A DNA stretch of 64,000 bases from Nanoarchaeota archaeon SCGC AAA011-D5 (GTDB lineage: Archaea > Nanobdellota > Nanobdellia > Pacearchaeales > GW2011-AR1). The stretch spans positions 70,073 through 134,072 of the forward strand of contig ASMP01000002.1 in NCBI GenBank assembly GCA_000405225.1, in the 5' to 3' direction. Position 1 is the first letter of the stretch; each line of letters opens with the position of its first letter. The position numbers were made by a program, and so were the translations under genes. This document shows positions 36,820 through 63,523 of the stretch, piece by piece. The notes beneath the pieces are model-generated. The model was not told the origin of the DNA. It made no database searches and was given only the letters and a program-made list of their open reading frames with translations.

Positions 36820-37980
36820 TCATATAGCAAAGATTTTTTTAGTTTCATCCAAAAGCCTGTTGGTAAAACTTTCCGTGGTTTCACCTTCCTGTTTTTCAGT
36901 GGACAGTGCACTCATTATTTGGGGGATAAACTTGTTGAATGCCGCAGGATTTTGTTCGGAATATTTTTTTATTGACTCCTCCTCTATATTTTCTGTTTCG
37001 GGGATTTCAGTCGCAATCTCTGCCTCTTTTGTCTTCAAATCGTGGGTATTTCGCAGCAAAAAAAAAGCTCCTTTTTTCTTTGCGGTTTCCTCTATCTTGG
37101 CAAATTTTATATCAGAGTGTTTTCCGCTTTCCAGAATCCCGCGTATCCTCAGAAGAACTATCTTGTCTTCCAGATCTTGCTTTTCAAGTTCGGAGAGAAT
37201 CTGCTCTGTTGCCCTTATGGCGTTTTTTACCTCTATATCAAAAGAAACCACGTTCTTGATTTTCAGGTCGATTCTTTTTAAGGGTTTTTCAAGACTGGAA
37301 TCCACGATGTAAAATCTTCCGTGCTGCAAATCTTCCAGTTCCTGGAAATTATTCGGAAATATTGGACCGGGATAAACAAAATTTTCATATTGAAAATCAA
37401 TGTGCAGGTGTCCAAGGGCATAATAGTCTGCCTTGGGGACTTTTGAAATTTCAAGAGCGTCTATGGGAAGGTTCCCTTTCGCCTTGTCTATAGTCGTATG
37501 CAGCAGAAAGATTTTGAATAAGCCAGGGGCTTCGTCAAACTGAGCTCTTCTCAAATCCCCCACTTCAAGTCCAGAGGTTTTTCCAGGATATCCGTAGAGT
37601 GCAACCCCTTTATGAATCGTCGGACTCAATATTATCCTATCATTTTTTTCTTCAAACACGGCGACGTTTTTGCAAAAACCTGCCTTCTCCAAAACATCGA
37701 GGAAAGTTTTTCCAGAAACAGAATAGTCGTGGCTTCCTGCAATTAAAAAACACGGGATTCCTGCTTCTTTTAGTTTTCTGAATTCCGCAAAACTTTCTTT
37801 AAGGACGTCTATTGGCGGGAAAGCTGCATCAAAAAGATCTCCTGCAATAACCACGAATTCTACTTTCTCCCCGATGCATATTTCAAGAGCCTTTTTGAAG
37901 GACTCGAGATTAAGATCCTGCAGAGGCTGTTGTTTCCATCCTCCGAGATGTACGTCAGCTATATGGGCAAATTTTACCAT
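36820..37980 (-). CDS. mre11: Mre11 nuclease
   Basis: ADVHLG, AGDLFD, GSHD, LLHT, LGHLH. Confidence 0.95.
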   Translation of the reverse strand: MVKFAHIADVHLGGWKQQPLQDLNLESFKKALEICIGEKVEFVVIAGDLFDAAFPPIDVLKESFAEFRKLKEAGIPCFLIAGSHDYSVSGKTFLDVLEKAGFCKNVAVFEEKNDRIILSPTIHKGVALYGYPGKTSGLEVGDLRRAQFDEAPGLFKIFLLHTTIDKAKGNLPIDALEISKVPKADYYALGHLHIDFQYENFVYPGPIFPNNFQELEDLQHGRFYIVDSSLEKPLKRIDLKIKNVVSFDIEVKNAIRATEQILSELEKQDLEDKIVLLRIRGILESGKHSDIKFAKIEETAKKKGAFFLLRNTHDLKTKEAEIATEIPETENIEEESIKKYSEQNPAAFNKFIPQIMSALSTEKQEGETTESFTNRLLDETKKIFAI

Positions 37981-38073: not shown

Positions 38074-38384
38074 AGCTAAGGCCATTCCAAAAGCACAGCT
38101 GTTCTCGTTGTTGCCATGGTTGTTCGAGTTAACATTCAACCTGTTGTTGCCCAAGTTCCTGTTGGAATTCAGACTCGCAACCCAGCTATGTAGCCAGTTT
38201 ATCTCATGAAATTTTTATTTTTCATGTCAGGAATCTTGCCTGCACAGAGCAAAATTTAATTTGCACACCATCGCTTCAAGTTTCGCAAATATTAGATATA
38301 AAAACTACTATTTGTCGCGATTGAATTTTATGACTTAAAATAAACCTGAATAATGCCTTAATAAACTGGCGTGTGGCCTTAGCT
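38074..38384 (-). ncRNA. Putative DGR template RNA (structured 5' domain + TR), bounded by long-range pairing
   Basis: 11-bp IR 38374-38384/38074-38084 encloses TR; nested 10-bp IR 38361-38370/38193-38202; hairpin 38205-38226; no avd ORF. Confidence 0.6.
38087..38183 (-). repeat. DGR template repeat (TR)
   Basis: 97 nt, 30 adenines on minus strand (12 AAY codons in target frame); differs from VR only at adenines. Confidence 0.97.
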
Positions 38385-38447
38385 CAAGCTTTTTTTAAGC
38401 TCTGCTAAGACAAATAAATAAGTAAAAACAGGTTTAAATTTTTTGCG

Positions 38448-38464
38448 AACCAGCTTCGCTGGTT
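38448..38464 (-). other. DGR target-recognition hairpin (7-bp stem, GAA loop)
   Basis: AACCAGC-GAA-GCTGGTT immediately after the target stop codon. Confidence 0.85.
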
Positions 38465-39165
38465 TACTTCAACACCCCAAAAGCACAGCAGTACTCGTCG
38501 CTGCCACGGTCGTACGAGACAACATCCAACCCGTCGTCGCCCAAGTCCCCGTCGGAACCCAGACCCGCAACCCCTGCTTCTGGTGTTTTCAAACTTGATA
38601 AATCTGGAACCCAAATGTGAGCTTTTTTATCTGGGTGTTTTGATGCAAGTTCTGCAAGTTTTTCAGCTCCTTCTTCACCACCAGCCCATGCAACAAAGTA
38701 AGGATGCTTTCCTACTTCTTTCCAGCTAACAGGACCTTGCCTAAGATGTTCAAAAGAAACTTGCGCACGGCTTTCGGCTAATCTTTTTAGCAAACCACCT
38801 CTATCAACAACAGAATTCTCATCAAATTCAGGATTATCTATAAAATGAGCAATTCTTTCTTTTGGAAGGTAAAGAATTCCTGTAAATCCTCTGAAATATC
38901 TATCTTTCATAATCTGATTAACTTCTCTTGCTTGAGGTTCATTGCCACTAAAATATTCATGAACAAAAGAAACTAATTCCGAAGTTGTTGGTTCTCTATA
39001 ACCAGTTGGATTTTCAGAAGAACCTCTTATTCGCCTTAAAAGATTCAGGGAATTTGCAGGGCCATAAAACGGATGCACCGCTGTTAAAATTTTTCCCTTG
39101 TGTGGAAAATCCATTTCTGTTCTTCCAACTCTTATTCTTTGTCTTGTGTCAGATTGAGTTTCCAT
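38464..39165 (-). CDS. DGR variable (target) protein, CLec-like
   Basis: C-terminal VR encodes VAGLGSDGDLGDDGLDVVSYDRGSDEYCCAFG. Confidence 0.92.
   Translation of the reverse strand: METQSDTRQRIRVGRTEMDFPHKGKILTAVHPFYGPANSLNLLRRIRGSSENPTGYREPTTSELVSFVHEYFSGNEPQAREVNQIMKDRYFRGFTGILYLPKERIAHFIDNPEFDENSVVDRGGLLKRLAESRAQVSFEHLRQGPVSWKEVGKHPYFVAWAGGEEGAEKLAELASKHPDKKAHIWVPDLSSLKTPEAGVAGLGSDGDLGDDGLDVVSYDRGSDEYCCAFGVLK
38477..38573 (-). repeat. DGR variable repeat (VR)
   Basis: Aligns to TR at offset 390: 19 mismatches (15 A>G, 4 A>T), none at the 67 non-A positions. Confidence 0.97.
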
Positions 39166-55476: not shown

Positions 55477-56921
55477 AATCCAGTTGATCCTGCTGGCGGC
55501 TGCGGCTCTCTGGTTTGCACTTAGACATGCAAGTTGTTTCTCTTAGAAATAGGAGGAAAGCGAACTGCTCAGTAACACGTAGCTAACCTACACTTAGGTC
55601 AAGGATAACCTCGGGAAACTGAGGCTAAACCCTGATAAATGTGAGACCCTGGAAAGAACTCACATTCAAACTCGCGCCTAAGGATGGGGCTGCGGCGGAT
55701 TAGGTAGTTGGCGGGGTAATAGCCCACCAAGCCTGTGATCCGTAAGGGCTCTTAGCGGAGAGGCCCTGAGAGGGAATCTGAGACACTATTCCCAGCCCTA
55801 CGGGGTGCAGCAGTTAGGAATCATCTGCAATGCGCGAAAGCGTGACAGTTTGAACCAGAGTGCTTCTCAATTGAGAAGCTTTTGCCAAATGTAAAAAGTT
55901 TGGCGAATAAGGACTGGGTAAGACGAGTGCCAGCCGCCGCGGTAATACTCGCGGTCCAAGTCGCAGCCACAATTATTGGGTCTAAAACATCCGTAGCTTG
56001 TCTGGTAAGTTCCTTGTGAAATCTTATCTCTTGAAGATGAGGCGTGCGAGGAATACTGCCAGACTAGAGACCGGTAGACGCAGGAAGTATGTTCGAAGTA
56101 GCGGTAAAATGCTTTAATCTCGGACAGACTCACAACAGCGAAGGCATCCTGCGAGAACGGTTCTGACTGTCAGGGATGAAGGCTAGGGGCGCAAAGTGGA
56201 TTAGATACCCATGTAGTCCTAGCAGTAAACACTGCACACTAAACATCAGTACCTCCTCGAGAGGCATTGGTGCTGCAGCGAAGGCGAAGAGTGTGCTACC
56301 TGGGAAGTATAGTCGCAAGGCCGAAACTTAAAGGAATAGGCGGGGAGACACTACAACGGGTGACGCGTGCGGTTCAATTAGATTCTACACCGTGAACCTC
56401 ACCAGGACCGACAGCAGAATGAAGGTCAGTCTGAAGGGCTTACCTGACACGCTGAGAGGAGTTGCATGGCCGACGTAAGCCTGTGTCGTGAGATGACCTG
56501 TTAAATCAGGTAACAGGCGAGACCCACATGTATATTTACTACGTGTACAATATACAGATTGCCTCGGTAACGTGGATGAAAGCGTGGGCAACGTTAGGTG
56601 AGTACAGCCTGAATGCCCTGGGCGACACGCGCGCGTCAATGGTGGATACAGTGGGATGCGACTCCGAAAGGAGAAGCTAATCTCTTAAAGTCCATCTCAG
56701 TCCAGATTGAAGCTTGCAATTCAGCTTCATGACGCTGGAATCCGTAGTAATCGTTTGTTAGCAGCGAACGGTGAATACGTCACTGTCTCTTGCACTCACT
56801 GCCCGTCAAACCAACCAAGTTGTGTTATGGTGAAACCAGTTTTGGGAGAACCTTAGCATGGTGAGGTAGGTTAAGTCGTCACAAGGTATCTGTAGGGGAA
56901 CCTGCAGATGGATCACCTCCT
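55477..56921 (+). rRNA. rrs: 16S rRNA (archaeal, no intron)
   Basis: AATCCAGTTGATCCTG 5' end, GTGCCAGCCGCCGCGGTAA, 3' GGATCACCTCCT. Confidence 0.98.
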
Positions 56922-57074: not shown

Positions 57075-57145
57075 GGGCCTGTAGTCTAATGGTAAAACAC
57101 TTCGCTTGCACCGATGAGCTCCGAGTTCGATTCTCGGCAGGTCCA
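57075..57145 (+). tRNA. tRNA-Ala(UGC), CCA not encoded
   Basis: Cloverleaf with TGC anticodon, G3:U70 pair, A73; single mismatches in D and anticodon stems. Confidence 0.92.
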
Positions 57146-57171
57146 TAAGTTTTTCTGAAATAAATTAGTTA

Positions 57172-57273
57172 ACTGAAAACCACCTGCGGGTTTTTCACAA
57201 TTCCTGCAGCTAGGTTAGATCACAAATCATATTCACTGAAAACCACCTGCGGGTTTTTCACAATTCCTGCAGC
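57172..57273. repeat. 39-bp direct repeat x2 in ITS
   Basis: 57172-57210 = 57235-57273, separated by 24 nt. Confidence 0.9.
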
Positions 57274-58627
57274 CGTGGACGTGAAAACATGGTGAGGGAA
57301 GAAGTTCCTTTATCAGTTTGAGAAAATAACTCACAATTATTTTCAATGAGATAAGCAACGAATGGTTTTCCTGATTTAGAAGGACATACTATTACCGACG
57401 CTGTTAGATGGATGGCTTGGTTTTGGTTTCGATGAAAGACGTGGCAAGCTGCGATAAGCTTGGGGGAGCCGCATGCAAGCTTTGATCCCAAGATTTCTGA
57501 ATCGTGCACCCATGTTTACATGGTCTGCAAGAATACGCCGGGAATTGAAACATCTTAGTACCGGCAGGAAGAGAAAATAAATTAATGATTCCCCTATTAG
57601 CAGAGAGCGAAAAGGGAAGAGGGCAAACCGAATCTCCTCTTGAAAGGGAGGCAGAGATGTGGTGAGCGTAAATTCCTAAGTCGTCGAGTCAAACTTCTCT
57701 GGAATGAGAGGCCTTGGAGAGTGATAGCCTCGTAGACGAAGATGATATGGAGTTGCTTTAAAGAGTAGGGCTCCCTGGATTGGGGGTCTGAATACGGCAG
57801 GATTAACTGCCAACCCTAAATAAAACCAAAGTCCGATAGCGCACTAGTACCGCGAGGGAATGCTGAAAAGAACCCGTAACAGGGAGTGAAAAGATCTGAA
57901 ATCTAACAGTTACAGTTTGTTACTGCCCTTTCCTCTTCGGAGGATTGGGGTTGTAACGTACGTTTCGAAGAACGAGCCAGGGAGTTTATTTGTGTGGCGA
58001 GGCTAATCATCTATAATGAGTAACCGAAGCGAAAGCAAGTTGGAAACAGCGAGAGTCACACGAATCAGACCTGAAGCCAGGTGATCTAATCATGGGCAAG
58101 GTGAAGTCTTCCGAAAGGAGGATGGAGGCCTGAACCAGTGTTGTGTACATGCACTTGGATGATCTGTGATTAGGGGTGAAAAGCCTATCTAACCTGGTGA
58201 TGGCTGGTTCCTGCTGAAATATGCCTCCGTATAGTCTTGTCTAGCTTGTCGACGGTGTAAAGTACGGATAAAATTTGCAGAGGCTAATGCCTACGGAATT
58301 TTTTCCAACTCAGAATCTGTCGACTGCATAGGACAAGAAACAGGGTGTGTATGTAAGATACACCTCCGAGACCCAAAAAAGGGAGACCAGAGTTAAGGTC
58401 CCTAAATTCATGCTAAGTGCGACAAAAGGTGTCCTGGACCTGAGACACTAGGGATGTAAGCTTAGAAGCAGCTATCATTTAAAGAAAGCGTAACAGCTCA
58501 CCTATCGAGGCCCAAGGCCCTGAAAATGGACGGGGCTAAGCATGGTACCGATACTCTGGAGGCACTCGGTTTAAAATAGTATAACAAAAATCAAAGATTT
58601 TTGTGCGTCTGCCAAGATGGTAGGCGC

Positions 58628-59140
58628 GGGAAGAATTTTTTATATGAAATAGGAAAAGAAAAGGTTTTTAAACTTTAAAGTAACAACAAAATTATGAATT
58701 TGAAGACGCTCCTTACAACAAAAAAAGATGAAAGAATAATGATGGATTTTGCTAGAGGAAAGATTAATTATTTAGAGGATGGTTTTCTTCAAAAAAATTT
58801 CCCAGACTTGTTTAGAAATCTTAAAAGTTATCGCGGTAGATGGGATGAGTTTGGAGAAGAACTTGAAAGAAGGTGTATAGAAAGAACAAGAGATATTTCA
58901 CAAAGAAAGGTAGATTATGGTGCAATACTTCATAATGTTGGAGTTGCTATTCCATTTTATTTTTTTACTGCACTCGTTAATATTGTTGGTGGTCTTGGTG
59001 GGGGGATTCATAAAACCCAAGAGATGCTTGATGAGGATTTAAGACCATATATGAAACCAACTTATAAATTGGCAAATTCTAATTAAAATATAATTCACAA
59101 ATCATATTCAACGAAAGTTGATTTCATAATTAATTCTTCC
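58628..59140 (+). mobile_element. Inverted-repeat-bounded gene cassette, copy 2 (inside 23S)
   Basis: Ends match 51175-51197 and 51503-51540; left and right ends pair 9 bp + 8 bp. Confidence 0.8.
58694..59086 (+). CDS. Cassette cargo: hypothetical 130-aa protein with hydrophobic segment
   Basis: Intact ORF with upstream TTTTAAA box; no LAGLIDADG/HNH/GIY-YIG motif seen. Confidence 0.7.
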   Translation: MNLKTLLTTKKDERIMMDFARGKINYLEDGFLQKNFPDLFRNLKSYRGRWDEFGEELERRCIERTRDISQRKVDYGAILHNVGVAIPFYFFTALVNIVGGLGGGIHKTQEMLDEDLRPYMKPTYKLANSN

Positions 59141-59838
59141 TGTACTATACAGAGTGTTCTGGTAAGCAGGCGTCTTTTCTGCGTCGAAGCTTCTTCGAGA
59201 GAAGGGGTGGAGCGGAAAGGAATGAGAATCCTGGTGGTAGTAGGATGTGATTTCTCTGAGAAAGAGAAACGTCGAAAGGGTAAGGTTTCCTTGGCAATAT
59301 ATTTTAGCCAAGGGTTAGTCAGCGCCTAAGTTGTGCCCTAACAGAGTACGACGATGGACAACAGGTTAATATTCCTGTACTGATCAAATTTTACATTTTA
59401 GGAAAGCTTTCGGATAAGCAAGCACCCGGAAGGGTGTTCTGGGAAAGAGACGGGGGGAGCGTAATGCAAAGATCTCTGTGAATTTTTCAGACAAAATTTC
59501 TGACTCCGAGAGCCAGTGAAAAGTTCTAGAGTTAAACGAGTTTGGTTAGCTGTACCCACAACCGACACTGGTGCCCTAGCTGAGAAGGCTAAGACGTGAA
59601 AGGAAAAACCAACTAAGGGAATTCGGCATATTGGTCCTGTAGCTTCGGCTGAAGGGATGTCTATCTTTGTGCTTCGGTTCGCAAGAATTTTAGGTGCATC
59701 GGTAGATTACAATAACAAAGATGGCCCGACTGTTTACCAAAAACGTAGCCAAGTGCTAATCTGTAAAGACTTGTATACTTGGTGAGCCCTGCCCAGTGGC
59801 GGTGTCTGAAACCCCTTTTCAAGGGGGCTAATGCCCGT

Positions 59839-59875
<37 letters not shown>

Positions 59876-60519
59876 GTAATGCCTTGTCGTCTGAATGGCG
59901 ACGTGCATGAATGGGTTAACGTGGTTGTCACTGTCCCTAGTTGGGACCTTCTGAACACACTTCGTGGTGAAAAGGCCACGGACGCCTAGTGGGAAGCGGA
60001 GACCTTGTGGAACTTTACTGCAACTTGTTGTTGTAATTTTAAGTGGAATGCATAGAATAGGTAGGAGCGTCGAGTCCCTCTTTTCGGAGGGGGAGGAGCG
60101 AAAGTGTAATACTACCCATTTTTATTAGAATTGCTTACCGTTTACGGAACAGCAGCAGGCGGGCAGTTTGGCTGGGGCGGCGCCCTGTCGAAAAGATATC
60201 GATAGGACCCAAAGTCAAGCTCATCCGGCTTGGAAACCCGGAGTTGAGTGCGAGGGCAAAAGCTTGACTGACTGTATTCTGAAAAGCAAGGAATGCAGGG
60301 ACGAAAGTCTGGCCTAGTGAACCCACGTGCTTTTTTAATAGAAGCCGTGTCTGATAGAAAAGTTACCCCAAGGATAACAGGCTTGTCGCACCCGATAGTC
60401 CATATTGACGGTGCGGTTTGGTACATCGCTGTCGGCTCTACCTATCCTGCGCGTGCAGAAGCGTGCAAGGGTGTCGGAGTTCACGCATTAAAAGGTATCG
60501 TTAGCTGGGTTAAGAACGT

Positions 60520-60842
60520 CAAAAATAGACCCAATTAACAGATAAGTACTGAACAAAGAACTTGACAAGCAAAAAATAAATAATTAACGCGGCGTTGCGC
60601 ACGAGTAATTGTGCGAAAAATAAAATCAGCTCATATCGGTGGAGGCTTGATGTTTAAATTGATTAAACTGTCAGCATCATGTTAATACCGAGGGAAGTCG
60701 TAATTGACCCCGTAGAGACTTAGAGTTTAAAACTCTGGAGTTCTGCTGTTAAAAGCAGAGCTAAGACGCTGATCTCCGTTGTGCAAACAACGGATGAAGG
60801 TATAGTCCATACAACACAAAATCATAAGTGTTGAGTAATATA
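60520..60842 (+). mobile_element. Group I intron (IA-like) at 23S position 2593, no homing endonuclease
   Basis: Exons GAACGT|CGCGAGACAG; IGS 60588-60596; P3 60625-60630/60768-60773; R GAGACT 60715-60720; S AAGGTATAGTCC 60797-60808; P8 with GCAA loop. Confidence 0.92.
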
Positions 60843-61099
60843 CGCGAGACAGTTTGTATGATATCTACTAGGTGTGTTGTTGTCTGAGTGGAACGAACTT
60901 GTAGTACGAGAGGAACCAGGTTCGGGAGCCTCTGGTGAGCAGTTGTCATCTGGCAGGCTGCATAGCTACGCTCCATACGGATAAGAGCTGAATGCATCTA
61001 AGCTCGAAGCCGCCCGCAAAACGAGACAACTAAGGCCGTCATAGAAGATGACGTTGATAGAGTTGGGGTGTAAGATTCAAGCTTTTGGTGAGGCGAGAA

Positions 61100-61217
61100 T
61101 TTCAGCCCACAACTACTAAAAGCCTCAATTTGAATTTTCTTTATAAGAAGATTCTATAATATGTTATGTCCACACAATTCTTTTTCAGAAAACCATTCGT
61201 TGTTTGTTGAGTTTTTT
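61100..61217 (+). repeat. 23S 3'-end repeat copy 1 (118 bp identical to 61891-62008)
   Basis: Exact direct repeat; first 39 bp also at 62571-62609. Confidence 0.95.
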
Positions 61218-61221
61218 GATT

Positions 61222-61542
61222 TTAATATCCAAATCTTCTTTCATAAGTCTTATGATCCATCCATTCAAGAATAATGGAGAAAACCAAGAGATTTTTTCCT
61301 TCTACACTATAAATCAATCTCCAAGCATCAGGCAAGTTATATTTCCATAAATTTTTAACATTATATTTTTTTAGGTATTCTTTTGGAATTAGCTTTTTAG
61401 GAATTTGTATTCCGCAAAAAGCATTATTTTCTATATCTTCAAAAGCTCTAGAAATGAGTCCATACATACTAGTGTCTTCATCTTCTAGTTTATGAAATGC
61501 ATTTTTTATTTTTTCACTGACAAACTGGATCTTACTTCTCAT
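61222..61542 (-). CDS. RelE/ParE-family toxin
   Basis: NLWKYNLPDAWRLIY...WMDHKTYERRFGY. Confidence 0.8.
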   Translation of the reverse strand: MRSKIQFVSEKIKNAFHKLEDEDTSMYGLISRAFEDIENNAFCGIQIPKKLIPKEYLKKYNVKNLWKYNLPDAWRLIYSVEGKNLLVFSIILEWMDHKTYERRFGY

Positions 61543-61831
61543 TTTTTCGCCACATAAGATGTGTTTTTTTCAACAACTTTTCAACATCTTTGGGATAATA
61601 AATCCATCCTATCTTCCCTTCAGAATCTACAGAAACCTTTCCAGATACTATCAGATAATCCAATATCAAGGAGAAAGTCTGATACATTACTCCCTTAGGA
61701 AGAGCACTCCAAAGCTGTTTTTTCCTGAACTCTCCGTCATGTTCTTTTATGAATTCCTCTACAAAAAGCACAGTATCCAGTCTAGGAAACCTTGCCGAAG
61801 GATTTTCTTTCCTTAACATGCTAAATGTCAT
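61532..61831 (-). CDS. Putative antitoxin (winged helix)
   Basis: PRLDTVLFVEEFI...YQTF..ILDYL; overlaps the toxin start. Confidence 0.65.
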   Translation of the reverse strand: MTFSMLRKENPSARFPRLDTVLFVEEFIKEHDGEFRKKQLWSALPKGVMYQTFSLILDYLIVSGKVSVDSEGKIGWIYYPKDVEKLLKKTHLMWRKNEK

Positions 61832-61890
61832 GGTTATATCAATTGATATACCTTTATAAATTTTTGGATTTTCTTATTTAGTTTAGGCTG

Positions 61891-62008
61891 TTTCAGCCCA
61901 CAACTACTAAAAGCCTCAATTTGAATTTTCTTTATAAGAAGATTCTATAATATGTTATGTCCACACAATTCTTTTTCAGAAAACCATTCGTTGTTTGTTG
62001 AGTTTTTT
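61891..62008 (+). repeat. 23S 3'-end repeat copy 2
   Basis: Identical to 61100-61217. Confidence 0.95.
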
Positions 62009-62047
62009 TATGATAAATCTTTTATACTTATATTTCCTTGTCTGTTC

Positions 62048-62359
62048 ATGAAGGAGTATTCTCTTTTATTTGATAAAGAATTTGTTAAAGCATACAGAAA
62101 ACTGGACAAATCGCTTCAGATAGAGGGAGACAAAAAACTTAAAAGATTAAAAATAAATCCAAGAGAGATTGGGAAACCTTTAAGATTTTTTCCAAATTTA
62201 TATGAATTGCATTTGAGGATGTACAGAATTTATTATGTGGTTGAGGAAGCAGAGATAAAGGTTCTCCTTCTGTCTATTTTGCACAAAGATGAGCAGGATA
62301 GATTTCTAAGAAGTCTAACAAAGGAAAGGATAAAGAGAATTATCGAAGAGAATTTCTAA
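62048..62359 (+). CDS. RelE/ParE-family toxin
   Basis: FDKEFVKAYRKL...NPREIGKPL...YELHLRMYRIYY; ATG 62048 preferred (ORF track 61952). Confidence 0.8.
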   Translation: MKEYSLLFDKEFVKAYRKLDKSLQIEGDKKLKRLKINPREIGKPLRFFPNLYELHLRMYRIYYVVEEAEIKVLLLSILHKDEQDRFLRSLTKERIKRIIEENF

Positions 62360-62507
62360 AGAATTCTTGTTCTGAAATGTAATTTCCAGAATTGATTCTA
62401 TTTAATGCTTCAGACAAATTTCTAATTAGTTTCCTGTTCATCAAAACAGCCAAGGCTCTCTTTAGCTCTTGGTTCTCTTCTCTTAGATTCTTCATTGCAG
62501 TATCCAT
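62340..62507 (-). CDS. Putative 55-aa antitoxin, convergent with toxin (not in ORF track)
   Basis: MDTAMKNLREENQELKRALAVLMNRKLIRNLSEALNRINSGNYISEQEFFRNSLR; upstream AAAAGTTTAAAAA promoter. Confidence 0.6.
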   Translation of the reverse strand: MDTAMKNLREENQELKRALAVLMNRKLIRNLSEALNRINSGNYISEQEFFRNSLR

Positions 62508-62570
62508 ATTTATCCTAAATGCCCAAAGTTTTTAAACTTTTACCCTGTTTTTAGGTTTCTTCGGCGACTG

Positions 62571-62644
62571 TTTCAGCCCACAACTACTAAAAGCCTCAAT
62601 TTGAATTTTATGTCTGGAAGAATCAGGAAAACCATTCGTTGCTT
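62571..62644 (+). repeat. 23S 3'-end repeat copy 3 (probable original) with perfect processing-stem strand
   Basis: 39-bp core, plus 62621-62644 is the exact reverse complement of pre-23S 57353-57376. Confidence 0.9.
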
Positions 62645-62654
62645 GTTGAGTTTT

Positions 62655-63038
62655 TTATCTCATTCTAACTAAACTCTTCAATACCCACCCATAATATGTT
62701 CCCTGATATCTGCTATCTGAAACAATTATCTTAACCCAATCGCCCTGTTCTTCTTCAATTAAAACTCGTACGCCCCCATTACAAAAATTGTCTGATTCAG
62801 GCAGCACATAATTAGATGCAAAATTTCCATTATCTGTTGGTTCTGTAAATAAAGGAACGGGTCCATTATCAATGCAAGTTCCATCGTCTTCTACTAAACT
62901 TAGATATCCTACTATTAAATTTTCAGAATTATTTGAAGAGGTTGCTTCTTTAGATAAAAATGGACTAGCAACAATACCAAGAATTATCAAACCAATGATG
63001 GCAGTTAAAATTGGATGTTTCTTTATCCAAGCATTCAT
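62655..63038 (-). CDS. Membrane-anchored protein with SH3-like C-terminus
   Basis: N-terminal TM; EEQGDWVKI...YYGWV pattern. Confidence 0.55.
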   Translation of the reverse strand: MNAWIKKHPILTAIIGLIILGIVASPFLSKEATSSNNSENLIVGYLSLVEDDGTCIDNGPVPLFTEPTDNGNFASNYVLPESDNFCNGGVRVLIEEEQGDWVKIIVSDSRYQGTYYGWVLKSLVRMR

Positions 63039-63088: not shown

Positions 63089-63523
63089 TCAGTTGTTTTG
63101 TTTTTCCAAATCTAATCTTTTAAAAAATTCCTCTTCATTTCTTTCAATCATTTCCATCTCTTTCTCTATGTCTTCCTTAGCTTTGCTTTTACAATCAGCA
63201 CAGGAATCAAAAAAAAGAGGATTGTAATATTTCTTTTTACAATATTCACACAAGCGTAAACCTCTCTCTTCAATAAAATGACATTTTTTACATATAGTAG
63301 TTACTTTTGCTTCCTCATTGAAATATTCCTTTTTTGCTTTTTCCATTGCTTTCTCCAATCTCTCATAGTATCCTACTTCCTTTTTTGCTTTTTCCAAAGA
63401 GTCCCTGAAAGGAACTTCGTGATGAATTCCTAATTTTTCCTCACTGCCACATCTTTCGCATCTATCTTTAATTTTTCTCTCTTTAAATTGCTTGAATTCT
63501 TTAGTTCTCCAAATGTTTTTCAT
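63089..63523 (-). CDS. HNH-like Zn-binding protein
   Basis: CERCG..LGIHHEVP...TTICKKCH, further CxxC pairs. Confidence 0.65.
   Translation of the reverse strand: MKNIWRTKEFKQFKERKIKDRCERCGSEEKLGIHHEVPFRDSLEKAKKEVGYYERLEKAMEKAKKEYFNEEAKVTTICKKCHFIEERGLRLCEYCKKKYYNPLFFDSCADCKSKAKEDIEKEMEMIERNEEEFFKRLDLEKQNN

Follow-up and report, generated by a model that had tools for sequence, protein, structure and literature searches.

We focused on the region behind the 23S rRNA gene in a 64-kb window, the whole stretch of DNA analysed, from a DPANN archaeon. Two small gene cassettes and three copies of a repeat follow the gene (Table 1). The 23S gene is 3756 nt long, compared with 2987 positions in the model, because of a low-GC insertion around positions 58600–59200 in the GC profile. 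The Rfam archaeal LSU match ends at 61139. Its last 39 nt form a core, TTTCAGCCCACAACTACTAAAAGCCTCAATTTGAATTTT, that occurs exactly three times in the window (61100, 61891 and 62571; periods of 791 and 680 bp), as first noted. By chance none would be expected, with 0 matches in 100 shuffles. A second block, GAAAACCATTCGTTG[T/C]TTGTTGAGTTTTTT, is a 30-nt stem strand with a terminal oligo-T run and also has three occurrences, at 61188, 61979 and 62627.

Table 1. Features of the 23S rRNA gene and of the cassettes and repeats behind it
Feature	Position	Strand	Evidence or remark
23S (LSU) rRNA gene, archaeal type	57384–61139	+	Rfam RF02540, 2069 bits, full-length match
Pre-23S processing stem, 5' (leader) strand	57353–57376	+	inverted repeats with all three trailers; cofold
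Repeat copy 1	61100–61217	+	adjoins the real 23S; core 61100–61138, A-type spacer, then stem strand and T-run 61188–61217
Cassette 1 toxin, 106 aa, YoeB/RelE-like	61222–61542	-	Pfam YoeB_toxin, E 2e-4, below cut-off
Cassette 1 candidate antitoxin, 99 aa	61532–61831	-	weak winged-helix-like matches; 11-nt overlap with toxin gene
Cassette 1 promoter region	61835–61861	-	perfect palindrome TATATCAATTGATATA (61835–61850) and TATA-like TTTATAAA
Cassette 1 right end TTTTCTTATTTAGTTTAGGCTG	61866–61890	+	shares TATTTAGTTT with L044 copy 2, same position
Repeat copy 2	61891–62008	+	core, A-type spacer, stem strand and T-run
Cassette 2 toxin, RelE/ParE superfamily, 104 aa	62045–62359	+	Pfam ParE_toxin, E 1.3e-6, 29.3 bits against a cut-off of 23
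Cassette 2 partner gene, 55 aa, coiled-coil-like	62340–62507	-	convergent with ParE gene, 20-nt overlap at its 3' end
Cassette-borne 23S-like arm TTCTTCGGCGACTG, 3' half of helix H101	62557–62570	+	type differs from host 23S GGTGAGGCGAGAAT
Repeat copy 3	62571–62656	+	core, short B-type spacer, stem strand and T-run

Copies 1 and 2 of the repeat are, as originally noted, identical over 118 nt (61100–61217 and 61891–62008). Alignment extends the similarity to 126 nt, at 98% identity. The A-type spacer of copy 1 contains a 10-bp hairpin (61132–61154) and a leader-pairing element, TTCTATAATATGTTATGTCC. We considered spacer element TTCTATAATAT as a promoter; cofolding explains it better as a strand pairing with leader segment GGACATACTATTA. 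The short B-type spacer of copy 3 resembles those at the single-copy sites of four relatives (L010, L013, L014 and L017). The CTG shared by copies 2 and 3 had been taken for a left-junction signature. It belongs instead to a longer 23S-like stretch, which is real 23S in some relatives (compare the left flank of copy 3, TTCTTCGGCGACTG, with the 23S of L044, CTTCGGCGACTGTTTCAGC).

The repeats carry the 3' strand of a long leader-trailer helix, of the kind known from archaeal pre-rRNA processing stems. The leader is perfectly complementary to copy 3 alone (57353–57376 with 62621–62644; 24 nt), and copies 1 and 2 hold the variant strand described previously, pairing with 57353–57370 over 18 nt with one G.U. 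Overall, 18–21 bp form in these copies when G.U pairs are counted. The helix is extended by GGACAT (57382–57387) together with the first 23S bases. Cofolding of the leader with the three trailers gave energies of -53.4 (copy 1), -54.5 and -56.2 (copy 3) kcal/mol. Hence, all three tails are predicted to be competent for pairing, with about equal duplex stability. In the predicted duplexes, internal loops separate the long helix from the GGACAT/ATGTCC helix, and we saw no clear canonical BHB (3-4-3). Copy 3, the farthest from the gene, is probably the native, displaced original trailer, as first proposed. It has the best leader complement, and in relative L029 the far-copy stem, ACCATTCATTGC, matches the single stem of relative L009.

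Cassette 1 has the layout typical of a type II toxin–antitoxin (TA) system, with an overlapping upstream 99-aa gene and a palindromic putative operator. We found 1414 homologues of its toxin, mostly in DPANN archaea where the source was named. Some homologue clusters bear PF06769 or Txe/YoeB names. The 99-aa and 106-aa genes stay paired in every homologous locus. The TATA-like element sits ~25 nt upstream of the antitoxin ATG, and the promoter region is conserved in L041, L044 and L049. The palindrome is a probable autoregulated operator. At the right end of the cassette, the counterpart in L044 copy 2 reads AAAGCCTTATTTAGTTTGTATACC. The match is short, and at most suggestive of a remnant of a foreign-type trailer start.

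Cassette 2 differs. Its toxin, above cut-off, has 81 homologues, from DPANN archaea where the source was named. No Pfam family was found for the 55-aa partner. The same convergent, overlapping pair recurs in L003, L029/L030, L031–L040 and L052–L057, making the partner a candidate antitoxin. Even so, an only conserved partner that is convergent and overlapping is atypical for type II TA. Both cassettes thus show a RelE/ParE/YoeB toxin signature, which for cassette 1 consists of the sub-threshold match and the PF06769-bearing homologue clusters. The original prediction of a different RelE-type TA module in each interval therefore stands in that a YoeB-like pair is followed by a ParE/RelE toxin; it fails in that cassette 2 is not a classical co-directional operon. 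An exact-protein look-up of the window's own TA proteins returned no match on record.

We compared the locus with Woese-, Pace- and Nanoarchaeota contigs that share its 23S core; the 70-nt tail of the 23S is also identical in several of them. These are related lineages, not isogenic strains. A second repeat copy is missing from L007, L009, L010, L012, L013, L014 and L017. One cassette is present in L004/L008, L041, L044 and L049, and several modules in L015, L029 and L003. Single-tail sites are not truly empty, because other small genes lie behind the tail. Arrays are found between the 23S gene and the next genes, and in seven loci a conserved RRM gene comes next. The cargo is repeatedly TA-like yet specific to the array. 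It includes YoeB-like and ParE modules; a 102-aa ORF of no assigned family with DUF2283; a PBECR3-like ORF (sub-threshold) with a weak DUF2283 match; DUF5678 with an unassigned ORF; and Fic with an RHH protein. Hence, relatives have zero, one or several repeat-bounded cassettes rather than one fixed arrangement. Sequence comparison indicates that the post-23S region of this archaeon is a genuine hotspot of variable insertions.

Three further lineages (L041/L042, L044/L047 and L049) have close homologues of cassette 1 (84–90% amino acid identity) immediately after the 23S tail. In each, they are flanked by that lineage's own tail repeat. Between lineages, nucleotide identity is 81–86% over 637 nt of the cassette, compared with 76–85% for the last ~110 nt of the 23S gene. 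Cassette 1 is missing from L009, L013, L017 and L029, which share the 23S tail of the window. Cassette 2 is present in L029 and missing from L009. The window TA families also occur at ordinary, non-rDNA loci. More distant homologues of both toxins (<=82% identity) were considered as complete arrays and discounted; they are on long contigs, at unrelated loci without the repeat. In L019, the cassette-1 TA family and a portion of an adjacent helicase gene form a plain tandem amplification whose period is 987 bp.

The extent of the repeat is not fixed across arrays. Copies start at the H101 loop, at the core or 2–8 nt inside the 23S gene, and the longest take in its last ~60 nt. L003 and L015 have copies made of the stem alone, L029 has a truncated core, and in L041 and L049 the repeats comprise just the tail. 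The right boundary is identical for every repeat unit, an oligo-T terminator. Among the copies compared, the common feature is the processing-stem strand with its terminator T-run, rather than the 23S 3' end.

Cassettes also carry rRNA fragments of foreign type. The 23S-like arm at the end of cassette 2 accompanies the ParE cassette in L029 (CTTCTTCGGCTATTG) and in L003 (TTCTTCAGTGAGAAT) as well. Its match is to the genuine 23S of L044, L015 and L002 and not to that of its host. The spacers on both sides of the cassette differ among the window, L029 and L003. Similarly, in L015 the 23S-attached copy reads CAGCTTAC and the cassette-borne copy CAGCCCAC. The cassette 2 arm and the L015 copy point to horizontal arrival with a portable rRNA fragment. 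Foreign-type rRNA-end fragments at the right ends of both window cassettes, the one on cassette 1 being an apparent remnant, argue in the same direction.

We searched for a recombinase. As predicted, there was no integrase in the window: 0 of 40 ORFs (131–876 aa) had an integrase, resolvase or transposase domain, Phage_integrase included. The same was true of seven array and downstream ORFs in a Pfam search, and none was evident among ORFs inspected beside the arrays of other loci. The integrase search spanned the 64-kb window, out of a contig of about 135 kb, so a trans-acting integrase may lie elsewhere. Scans of viral contigs with a 22-mer and a 19-mer found none with the core, nor relatives of either toxin, and no virus or plasmid carrier was identified. 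An HNH-like zinc-ribbon ORF downstream (63089–63523) was considered as a homing nuclease driving spread. It is missing from every other array locus, and its Pfam HNH match has an E value of only 0.22. We also set aside L001, a bacterial (Thiotrichaceae) contig with a 22–25-nt core match inside an ORF. Its surroundings are bacterial, the neighbouring genes being DprA- and pseudopilin-like by eye, and chance alone would give ~0.07 such matches in the collection searched. An RT-16 RNA motif match lies elsewhere in the window (38185–38410).

We give about an even chance to a cassette array anchored on the rRNA-operon end, built by Campbell-type integration via portable homology using host recombination. 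The array, small and with rapid turnover, would sit at the 3' end of the only rRNA operon in a Woese-/Pacearchaeota-type DPANN archaeon. Each cassette would be a 0.6–0.8 kb two-gene TA-like module with a copy of the operon tail at one end. Briefly, the carried tail would join a piece of the 23S 3' end to a spacer, the 3' processing-stem strand of pre-23S and the T-run of the terminator. We infer that a circularised, or otherwise free, cassette would meet the chromosomal tail in a single crossover, placed inside either of two conserved homology blocks, the 23S core (39 nt) and the stem strand (30 nt). This would yield 23S–tail–cassette–tail, with the 23S 3' end intact and a stem strand still able to pair with the leader. 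The displaced original tail would come to lie farthest downstream, and repeated rounds would stack cassettes. Portable homology and the host's own recombination machinery, not a dedicated integrase, would drive the process. Rad50 and Mre11 are both encoded in the window. Gene conversion or unequal exchange between adjacent tails could later homogenise copies 1 and 2 and shuffle the spacers. The TA modules would probably counteract pop-out deletion between the direct repeats and so keep the array stable.

The exact repeats, regenerated ends and variable relatives support serial insertion that restores both the rRNA end and the stem. Tandem integration of this sort had been suggested at the outset, and every cassette-proximal copy brings a stem predicted to pair with the leader. 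Variable repeat extent, and variable spacers around the same cassette, are what two-block homology exchange predicts, rather than crossover at one fixed att site. The uniform T-run boundary is tidier than pure homologous recombination requires; it may reflect inheritance of the boundary and selection against disruption of the operon. A doubtful alternative makes the stem strand and terminator the recombination site itself. The locus would then be a dedicated DPANN capture platform, served by a novel recombinase or by machinery linked to RNA processing, with cassettes selected for a working stem. Leader pairing with stem 1, 2 or 3 would set whether cassette RNA falls inside or outside circular pre-23S, coupling TA expression or stability to rRNA processing. 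If so, the platform would be equivalent in function to an integron, but archaeal and made of rRNA maturation signals.

It is possible, if unlikely, that the recombination is site-specific and relies on an integrase gene located elsewhere, in the genome, a virus or a plasmid. Integrase-less, att-flanked cassettes of CIME or satellite type would accrete in tandem at an attB in the 23S end or trailer, like islands at tRNA and tmRNA genes. Direct repeats that include the 3' end of the target RNA gene flank both cassettes and the gene is regenerated, as with integrative elements. The topology is exactly attL–cargo–attR, with the displaced end downstream, and 39 nt of exact identity, as in the core, is usual for att sites. 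In bacteria, integrase-less elements are documented to accrete in tandem at gene 3' ends (PMC5704250), and the one tmRNA gene of Dehalococcoides has tandem islands (PMC3146451). Our search covered part of the genome. However, the recombinase and viral searches above were negative, and the cassette-borne copies lack a fixed extent. Those of L041 and L049, and the stem-only copies of L003 and L015, have no core at all. Moreover, a single crossover site would not shuffle the spacers of cassette 2. We consider it unlikely that nothing moved at all. On that view, an old TA insertion would have been inherited vertically, local segmental duplication with unequal crossing-over would have created the repeats, gene conversion (concerted evolution) would maintain their likeness, and loss and local replacement would set the relatives apart. 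This would account for lineage-specific flanking repeats around a common cassette-1 cargo (L041, L044 and L049 compared with the window), and for cassette 1 diverging about as much as the 23S tail. The 100% identity of copies 1 and 2 over 118 nt looks like recent conversion, and L019 provides a case of tandem amplification. Nonetheless, duplication by itself cannot make an array from two cassettes that, as in the window, are unrelated. The cassette 2 arm and the L015 copy 2 core are foreign in type rather than duplicates of host 23S, and the patchy presence of both cassettes among L009, L013, L017 and L029 also speaks against vertical inheritance.

Assembly error, chaining strain variants with different cassettes through the shared repeat, is very unlikely. 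The source contig was probably assembled from a metagenome, and assemblers do break at these repeats, since many homologous cassettes sit on contigs of 0.6–1.4 kb. Yet the architecture recurs in independent assemblies, three of which (L008, L006 and the genome bin L004) carry one and the same cassette sequence. In L015, L029/L030, L041/L042 and L049, the repeat is on both sides of a cassette within one contig. In the window, the 118-nt repeat flanks cassette 1 on both sides, whatever comes next. An origin through RNA, in which reverse transcriptase joins cDNA of the pre-rRNA 3' end to cassette transcripts before integration, would account for the U-run ends, all repeat units finishing at an oligo-T terminator, and could draw on the RT-16 motif match. 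It is extremely improbable: cassette 1 is antisense to the rRNA and cassette 2 sense, the cassettes bring their own promoters, and the ORFs tested have no reverse transcriptase domain.

If integration by portable homology is correct, the end of the rRNA operon, among the most conserved sequences of the cell, would be a common landing pad in small-genome DPANN archaea. A short, portable piece of rRNA would let sub-kilobase selfish cassettes cross lineages without a recombinase of their own. This would help to explain how TA and defence-like genes spread where recognisable mobile elements are few. Insertions beside an essential RNA gene would be tolerated only with a working processing stem. In practice, 23S-tail repeats would be a simple marker for recently acquired genes in such genomes; they also disrupt short-read assemblies exactly at the rRNA operon.

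A literature search found nothing relevant, and no published description, on TA cassettes or integration at archaeal 23S ends. The array had been likened to an integron, and as an analogy this holds: small cassettes, varying among relatives, occupy one platform. It does not extend to the recombination site or enzyme, since there was no attC-type hairpin and no IntI was found in the window. Single-stranded folds of A- and B-type repeat units, on both strands, were no more stable than shuffles (z-scores of -0.53, -0.61, +1.85 and +1.96). We therefore reject an attC-like fold; each repeat directly copies the rRNA tail. Integrons, including those reported in archaea (PMC9668308), likewise hold arrays of small cassettes, mostly single operons or promoter-containing and many encoding TA, with a recurring recombination-site-like repeat at a fixed chromosomal platform. 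However, integrons have cassette-specific imperfect palindromes, whereas here the repeats copy the host rRNA tail and cassettes lie in both orientations.

Islands at tRNA and tmRNA 3' ends, including the tandem ssrA islands of Dehalococcoides (PMC3146451), likewise target the 3' end of a stable RNA gene. In Dehalococcoides-type islands, as here, the element brings a replacement 3' end and the displaced copy becomes a downstream direct repeat (PMC3146451). Tandem stacking of such islands is a major source of strain-level variation (PMC3146451). By contrast, the target here is the 23S end plus a processing-stem strand, the units are 0.6–0.8 kb without an integration module, repeat extent varies and no integrase was found in the window. 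CIMEs are likewise integrase-less, bounded by att-like repeats and accumulated in tandem beside the end of a target gene. However, CIMEs are decayed ICEs or IMEs that rely on the integrase of a related element, whereas the present units look like dedicated minimal TA cassettes, in archaeal hosts and with no sign of a parent element. HVR2 is also a flexible island directly behind a 23S gene, and its authors argued that conserved rRNA genes serve as homologous-recombination sites spreading island variants. HVR2 holds cell-surface genes over ~48 kb and lies between two different rRNA genes, where it is exchanged as a unit. Here, in contrast, the units are TA cassettes of less than a kilobase, and a duplicated rRNA tail comes after each.

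The right end of the window holds a typical archaeal rRNA operon, identified using Rfam. The remaining genes are housekeeping genes of a small AT-rich archaeon, including those for RtcB, the CCA-adding enzyme, exosome and proteasome subunits, enolase, ribosomal protein S2, FttA, Rad50 and Mre11. As originally predicted, the final 39 nt of the 23S match (TTTCAGCCCACAACTACTAAAAGCCTCAATTTGAATTTT, the core) occur exactly three times; 100 shuffles gave no match. Each core belongs to a repeat, here called copies 1 to 3, composed of the 23S 3' end, a spacer, the 3' strand of the pre-23S processing stem and a T-run. After each core comes a second conserved block, GAAAACCATTCGTTG(T/C)TTGTTGAGTTTTTT. 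The oligo-T run terminating every unit is the usual archaeal terminator signal.

Coordinates of features in the window and in compared contigs (L handles)
Feature	Contig	Position	Strand	Details
RT-16 RNA	window	38185-38410	-	Rfam; 105 bits, E 5e-16
Mre11-like ORF	window	36820-37980		adjoins RT-16
233-aa ORF	window	38464-39165		adjoins RT-16; no Pfam match
16S	window	55477-56921		Rfam
tRNA	window	57075-57145		Rfam
42-nt direct repeat	window	57169-57210, 57232-57273		98% identical, period 63
Leader	window	57353-57376		5' of 23S
23S	window	57384-61139		Rfam
Low-GC block	window	58600-59200		GC 0.30-0.35
130-aa ORF	window	58694-59086	+	no Pfam match
Cores, copies 1-3	window	from 61100, 61891, 62571
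Second blocks, copies 1-3	window	from 61188, 61979, 62627
Leader complement, copy 3	window	62621-62644		perfect
ParE + convergent small gene	window	62045-62507
ParE + convergent small gene	L029	215-674
ParE + convergent small gene	L031	6001-6463
ParE + convergent small gene	L052	10001-10460
ParE + convergent small gene	L054	2130-2586
Zinc-ribbon protein	window	63089-63523	-	144 aa
Amplified YoeB-like pair	L019	1-2300		period 987 bp
87-nt segment	L019	77-163, 1064-1150, 2051-2137
EEGFY...WYFQF family	L029	1856-2469
Core match	L001	5341-5362		22-25 nt, exact

A 118-nt stretch is identical in copies 1 and 2, and the spacer of copy 3 is shorter by 32 nt. Only copy 3 is perfectly complementary to the leader over 24 nt; copies 1 and 2 pair with it over 18 nt, with one G.U. 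Apart from the spacer length, these details stood as predicted. Leader-tail duplex energies calculated using RNAcofold were -53.4, -54.5 and -56.2 kcal/mol for copies 1, 2 and 3, respectively. The long spacer of copies 1 and 2 contains a conserved element, TTCTATAATATGTTATGTCC, that pairs with leader segment GGACATACTATTA. The latter lies just before the 23S 5' end and runs into it. Hence, any of the three copies could close the pre-23S helix. Modelled in this way, the long spacer is probably not junk. No canonical bulge-helix-bulge motif was recognised in the predicted duplexes.

The two intervals carry different RelE-type toxin-antitoxin (TA) modules, in agreement with the original prediction. 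Cassette 1, between copies 1 and 2, encodes on the minus strand an overlapping pair, a 99-aa protein and a 106-aa YoeB-like protein, with a perfect palindrome and TATA-like box upstream. Cassette 2, between copies 2 and 3, encodes a predicted ParE/RelE toxin scoring above the Pfam threshold; a 55-aa gene converges on it and overlaps it. Members of both TA families that are more distantly related occupy ordinary loci, without the repeat. The ParE/RelE gene is always paired with a convergent gene of 54-57 aa, overlapping by ~20-30 nt at the 3' end, and this holds both at rDNA and elsewhere. Such an unusual, conserved TA-like layout hints at antisense control. At one of the loci without the repeat, L019 (GCA_964477635.1), the YoeB-like pair is simply amplified in tandem. 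There, an 87-nt segment of each unit reappears within the 3' end of the adjacent DEAD-box helicase gene, so part of this gene is amplified with the pair. For both toxins, many of the nearest homologues are on contigs of only 0.5-1.4 kb, consistent with assembly breaks at flanking rRNA-tail repeats. Such arrays may therefore be under-represented in genome bins.

Relatives were found with a single 22-mer of the core, searched for in genome and metagenome collections. Contigs carrying close homologues of either toxin were then located, and every locus was scanned with a profile of the unit. The recovered relatives bear the labels Woesearchaeota, Pacearchaeota or Nanoarchaeota, which makes the source a DPANN archaeon. 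They represent related lineages, not strains, and most are short contigs breaking at these repeats. As anticipated, their post-23S regions vary. Seven contigs (L007, L009, L010, L012, L013, L014 and L017) have a single tail, then unrelated small genes; all have the window's 23S core, and in several the 70-nt 23S tail is identical as well. In three independent assemblies (L004, L008 and L006), two tails flank an unassigned 102-aa ORF and DUF2283, followed by a conserved RRM gene. L015 has two tails around a sub-threshold PBECR3-like gene and weak DUF2283, then another interval, a stem-only copy, and DUF5678 with an unassigned ORF; a homologue of this ORF stands at the start of L003. In L029, the 23S tail precedes a ParE/55-aa module (91% identity to the window's), a truncated core plus stem, Fic/RHH, four small ORFs and the RRM gene. 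In L009, with the same stem variant, Fic/RHH is directly behind the single tail. L003 has a stem-only copy, a 5'-truncated ParE pseudogene with the 55-aa gene, and a full copy. The cassette 1 pair is directly behind the 23S tail in L041/L042, L044/L047 and L049 (84-90% aa identity), each with a second copy of its own tail after the pair. Where found, the RRM gene lies roughly 1.1-5.6 kb beyond the 23S end or the final repeat copy. Hence, judged from sequence, the post-23S region is a genuine hotspot, repeatedly filled by different two-gene TA-like modules, typically with a copy of the operon tail next.

Several relatives' post-23S islands also encode a ~91-104-aa protein family with motif EEGFY...WYFQF and no Pfam family, often as tandem paralogues (L029; L007 and L009, downstream of 23S). 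Every L029 copy is preceded by GAAAACCATTTT, resembling the stem-strand start. The core match in L001, a Thiotrichaceae MAG contig, lies within a bacterial ORF without rRNA context and is probably due to chance.

Some cassettes carry rRNA fragments of a foreign type. The left flank of copy 3, TTCTTCGGCGACTG, prolongs 23S homology by ~14 nt (3' half of helix H101). It differs from the host version, GGTGAGGCGAGAAT, and matches the true 23S of L044, L015 and L002. The CTG shared by copies 2 and 3, originally read as a left junction, is better explained as part of this longer stretch. In L029 and L003, the ParE cassette has the same arm. In L015, the core attached to 23S is CAGCTTAC and the cassette-borne core is CAGCCCAC. 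The right end of cassette 1 holds TATTTAGTTT, and in the corresponding place the second tail of L044 starts ...GCCTTATTTAGTTT, a match too short to be more than suggestive. Together, these differences indicate that cassettes probably arrive from other lineages with a piece of rRNA tail. They also place the likely crossover on the right side of the polymorphic positions, in approximately AACTACTAAAAGCCTCAATT(T)GAATTTT or beyond it on that side.

Several observations speak against the proposed likeness to an integron and against a single att site. No attC-like hairpin fold of the unit was found on either strand, and repeat start points vary. Cassette-borne copies may start at the H101 loop, 5 nt upstream of the core, with the core itself or just 2-8 nt within 23S (L041, L044, L049), or they comprise the stem alone (L003, L015). 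All copies have only the stem strand plus T-run in common. Cassette 2 spacers differ, on both sides, among the window, L029 and L003; neither core-only nor stem-only crossover would explain all three. As predicted, the window has no integrase: recombinase, resolvase or transposase domains were found in 0 of 40 ORFs. No viral contig had the core or toxins. The ordinary, repeat-free loci of the more distant TA relatives point the same way.

We favour Campbell-type integration, to which we give about an even chance. A cassette bearing a portable segment homologous to the operon tail, which is highly conserved, would integrate by crossover in either block, core or stem, using host recombination functions. 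This would regenerate the 23S end and stem, and displace the best-matching original tail to the far end. With subsequent gene conversion between neighbouring tails, foreign arms, shuffled spacers, 100% identity of copies 1 and 2 and the lack of an integrase would follow. The TA cargo would counter-select pop-out between direct repeats. A trans-acting integrase, with CIME-like accretion, would give the same topology; we think this unlikely.

Cassette 1 is reasonably well accommodated by vertical inheritance with concerted evolution, since it has diverged between lineages (81-86% nt) about as much as the 23S tail has (76-85%). However, this account leaves unexplained the foreign arms and why contigs sharing one 23S tail differ in content; we consider it rather improbable. 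Independent recurrences of the arrangement make mis-assembly unlikely. An RNA/RT route conflicts with the orientation of the cassettes and with their having promoters of their own.

The known kinds that come closest are islands inserted at tRNA/tmRNA 3' ends, among them the tandem ssrA islands of Dehalococcoides (PMC3146451); accretion of CIMEs (PMC5704250); integrons, reported also in Archaea (PMC9668308); and the SAR11 HVR2 island. The last lies behind the 23S gene, and the rRNA genes flanking it have been suggested to act as sites of homologous recombination (PMC2217521). None of these joins sub-kilobase, integrase-less TA cassettes to an rRNA 3' end anchor and a restored pre-rRNA processing stem. 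Full-text literature searches found no description of such 23S-tail TA arrays.

Directly downstream of the array, a zinc-ribbon protein has an HNH-like pattern (CERCG...HH...CKKCH) and a weak Pfam HNH match (E 0.22); no homologue was found near other arrays. Elsewhere, no reverse transcriptase domain was found in the two ORFs adjoining the RT-16 match. The 23S match spans 3756 nt, compared to a 2987-position model, and includes a low-GC block (GC is ~0.45-0.50 across most of the gene elsewhere). This block, containing the 130-aa ORF, may be an intron, insertion element or expansion segment. Between the tRNA and the 23S leader, both copies of the 42-nt repeat have a GAAAACC...GGTTTTC hairpin, then CTGCAG.
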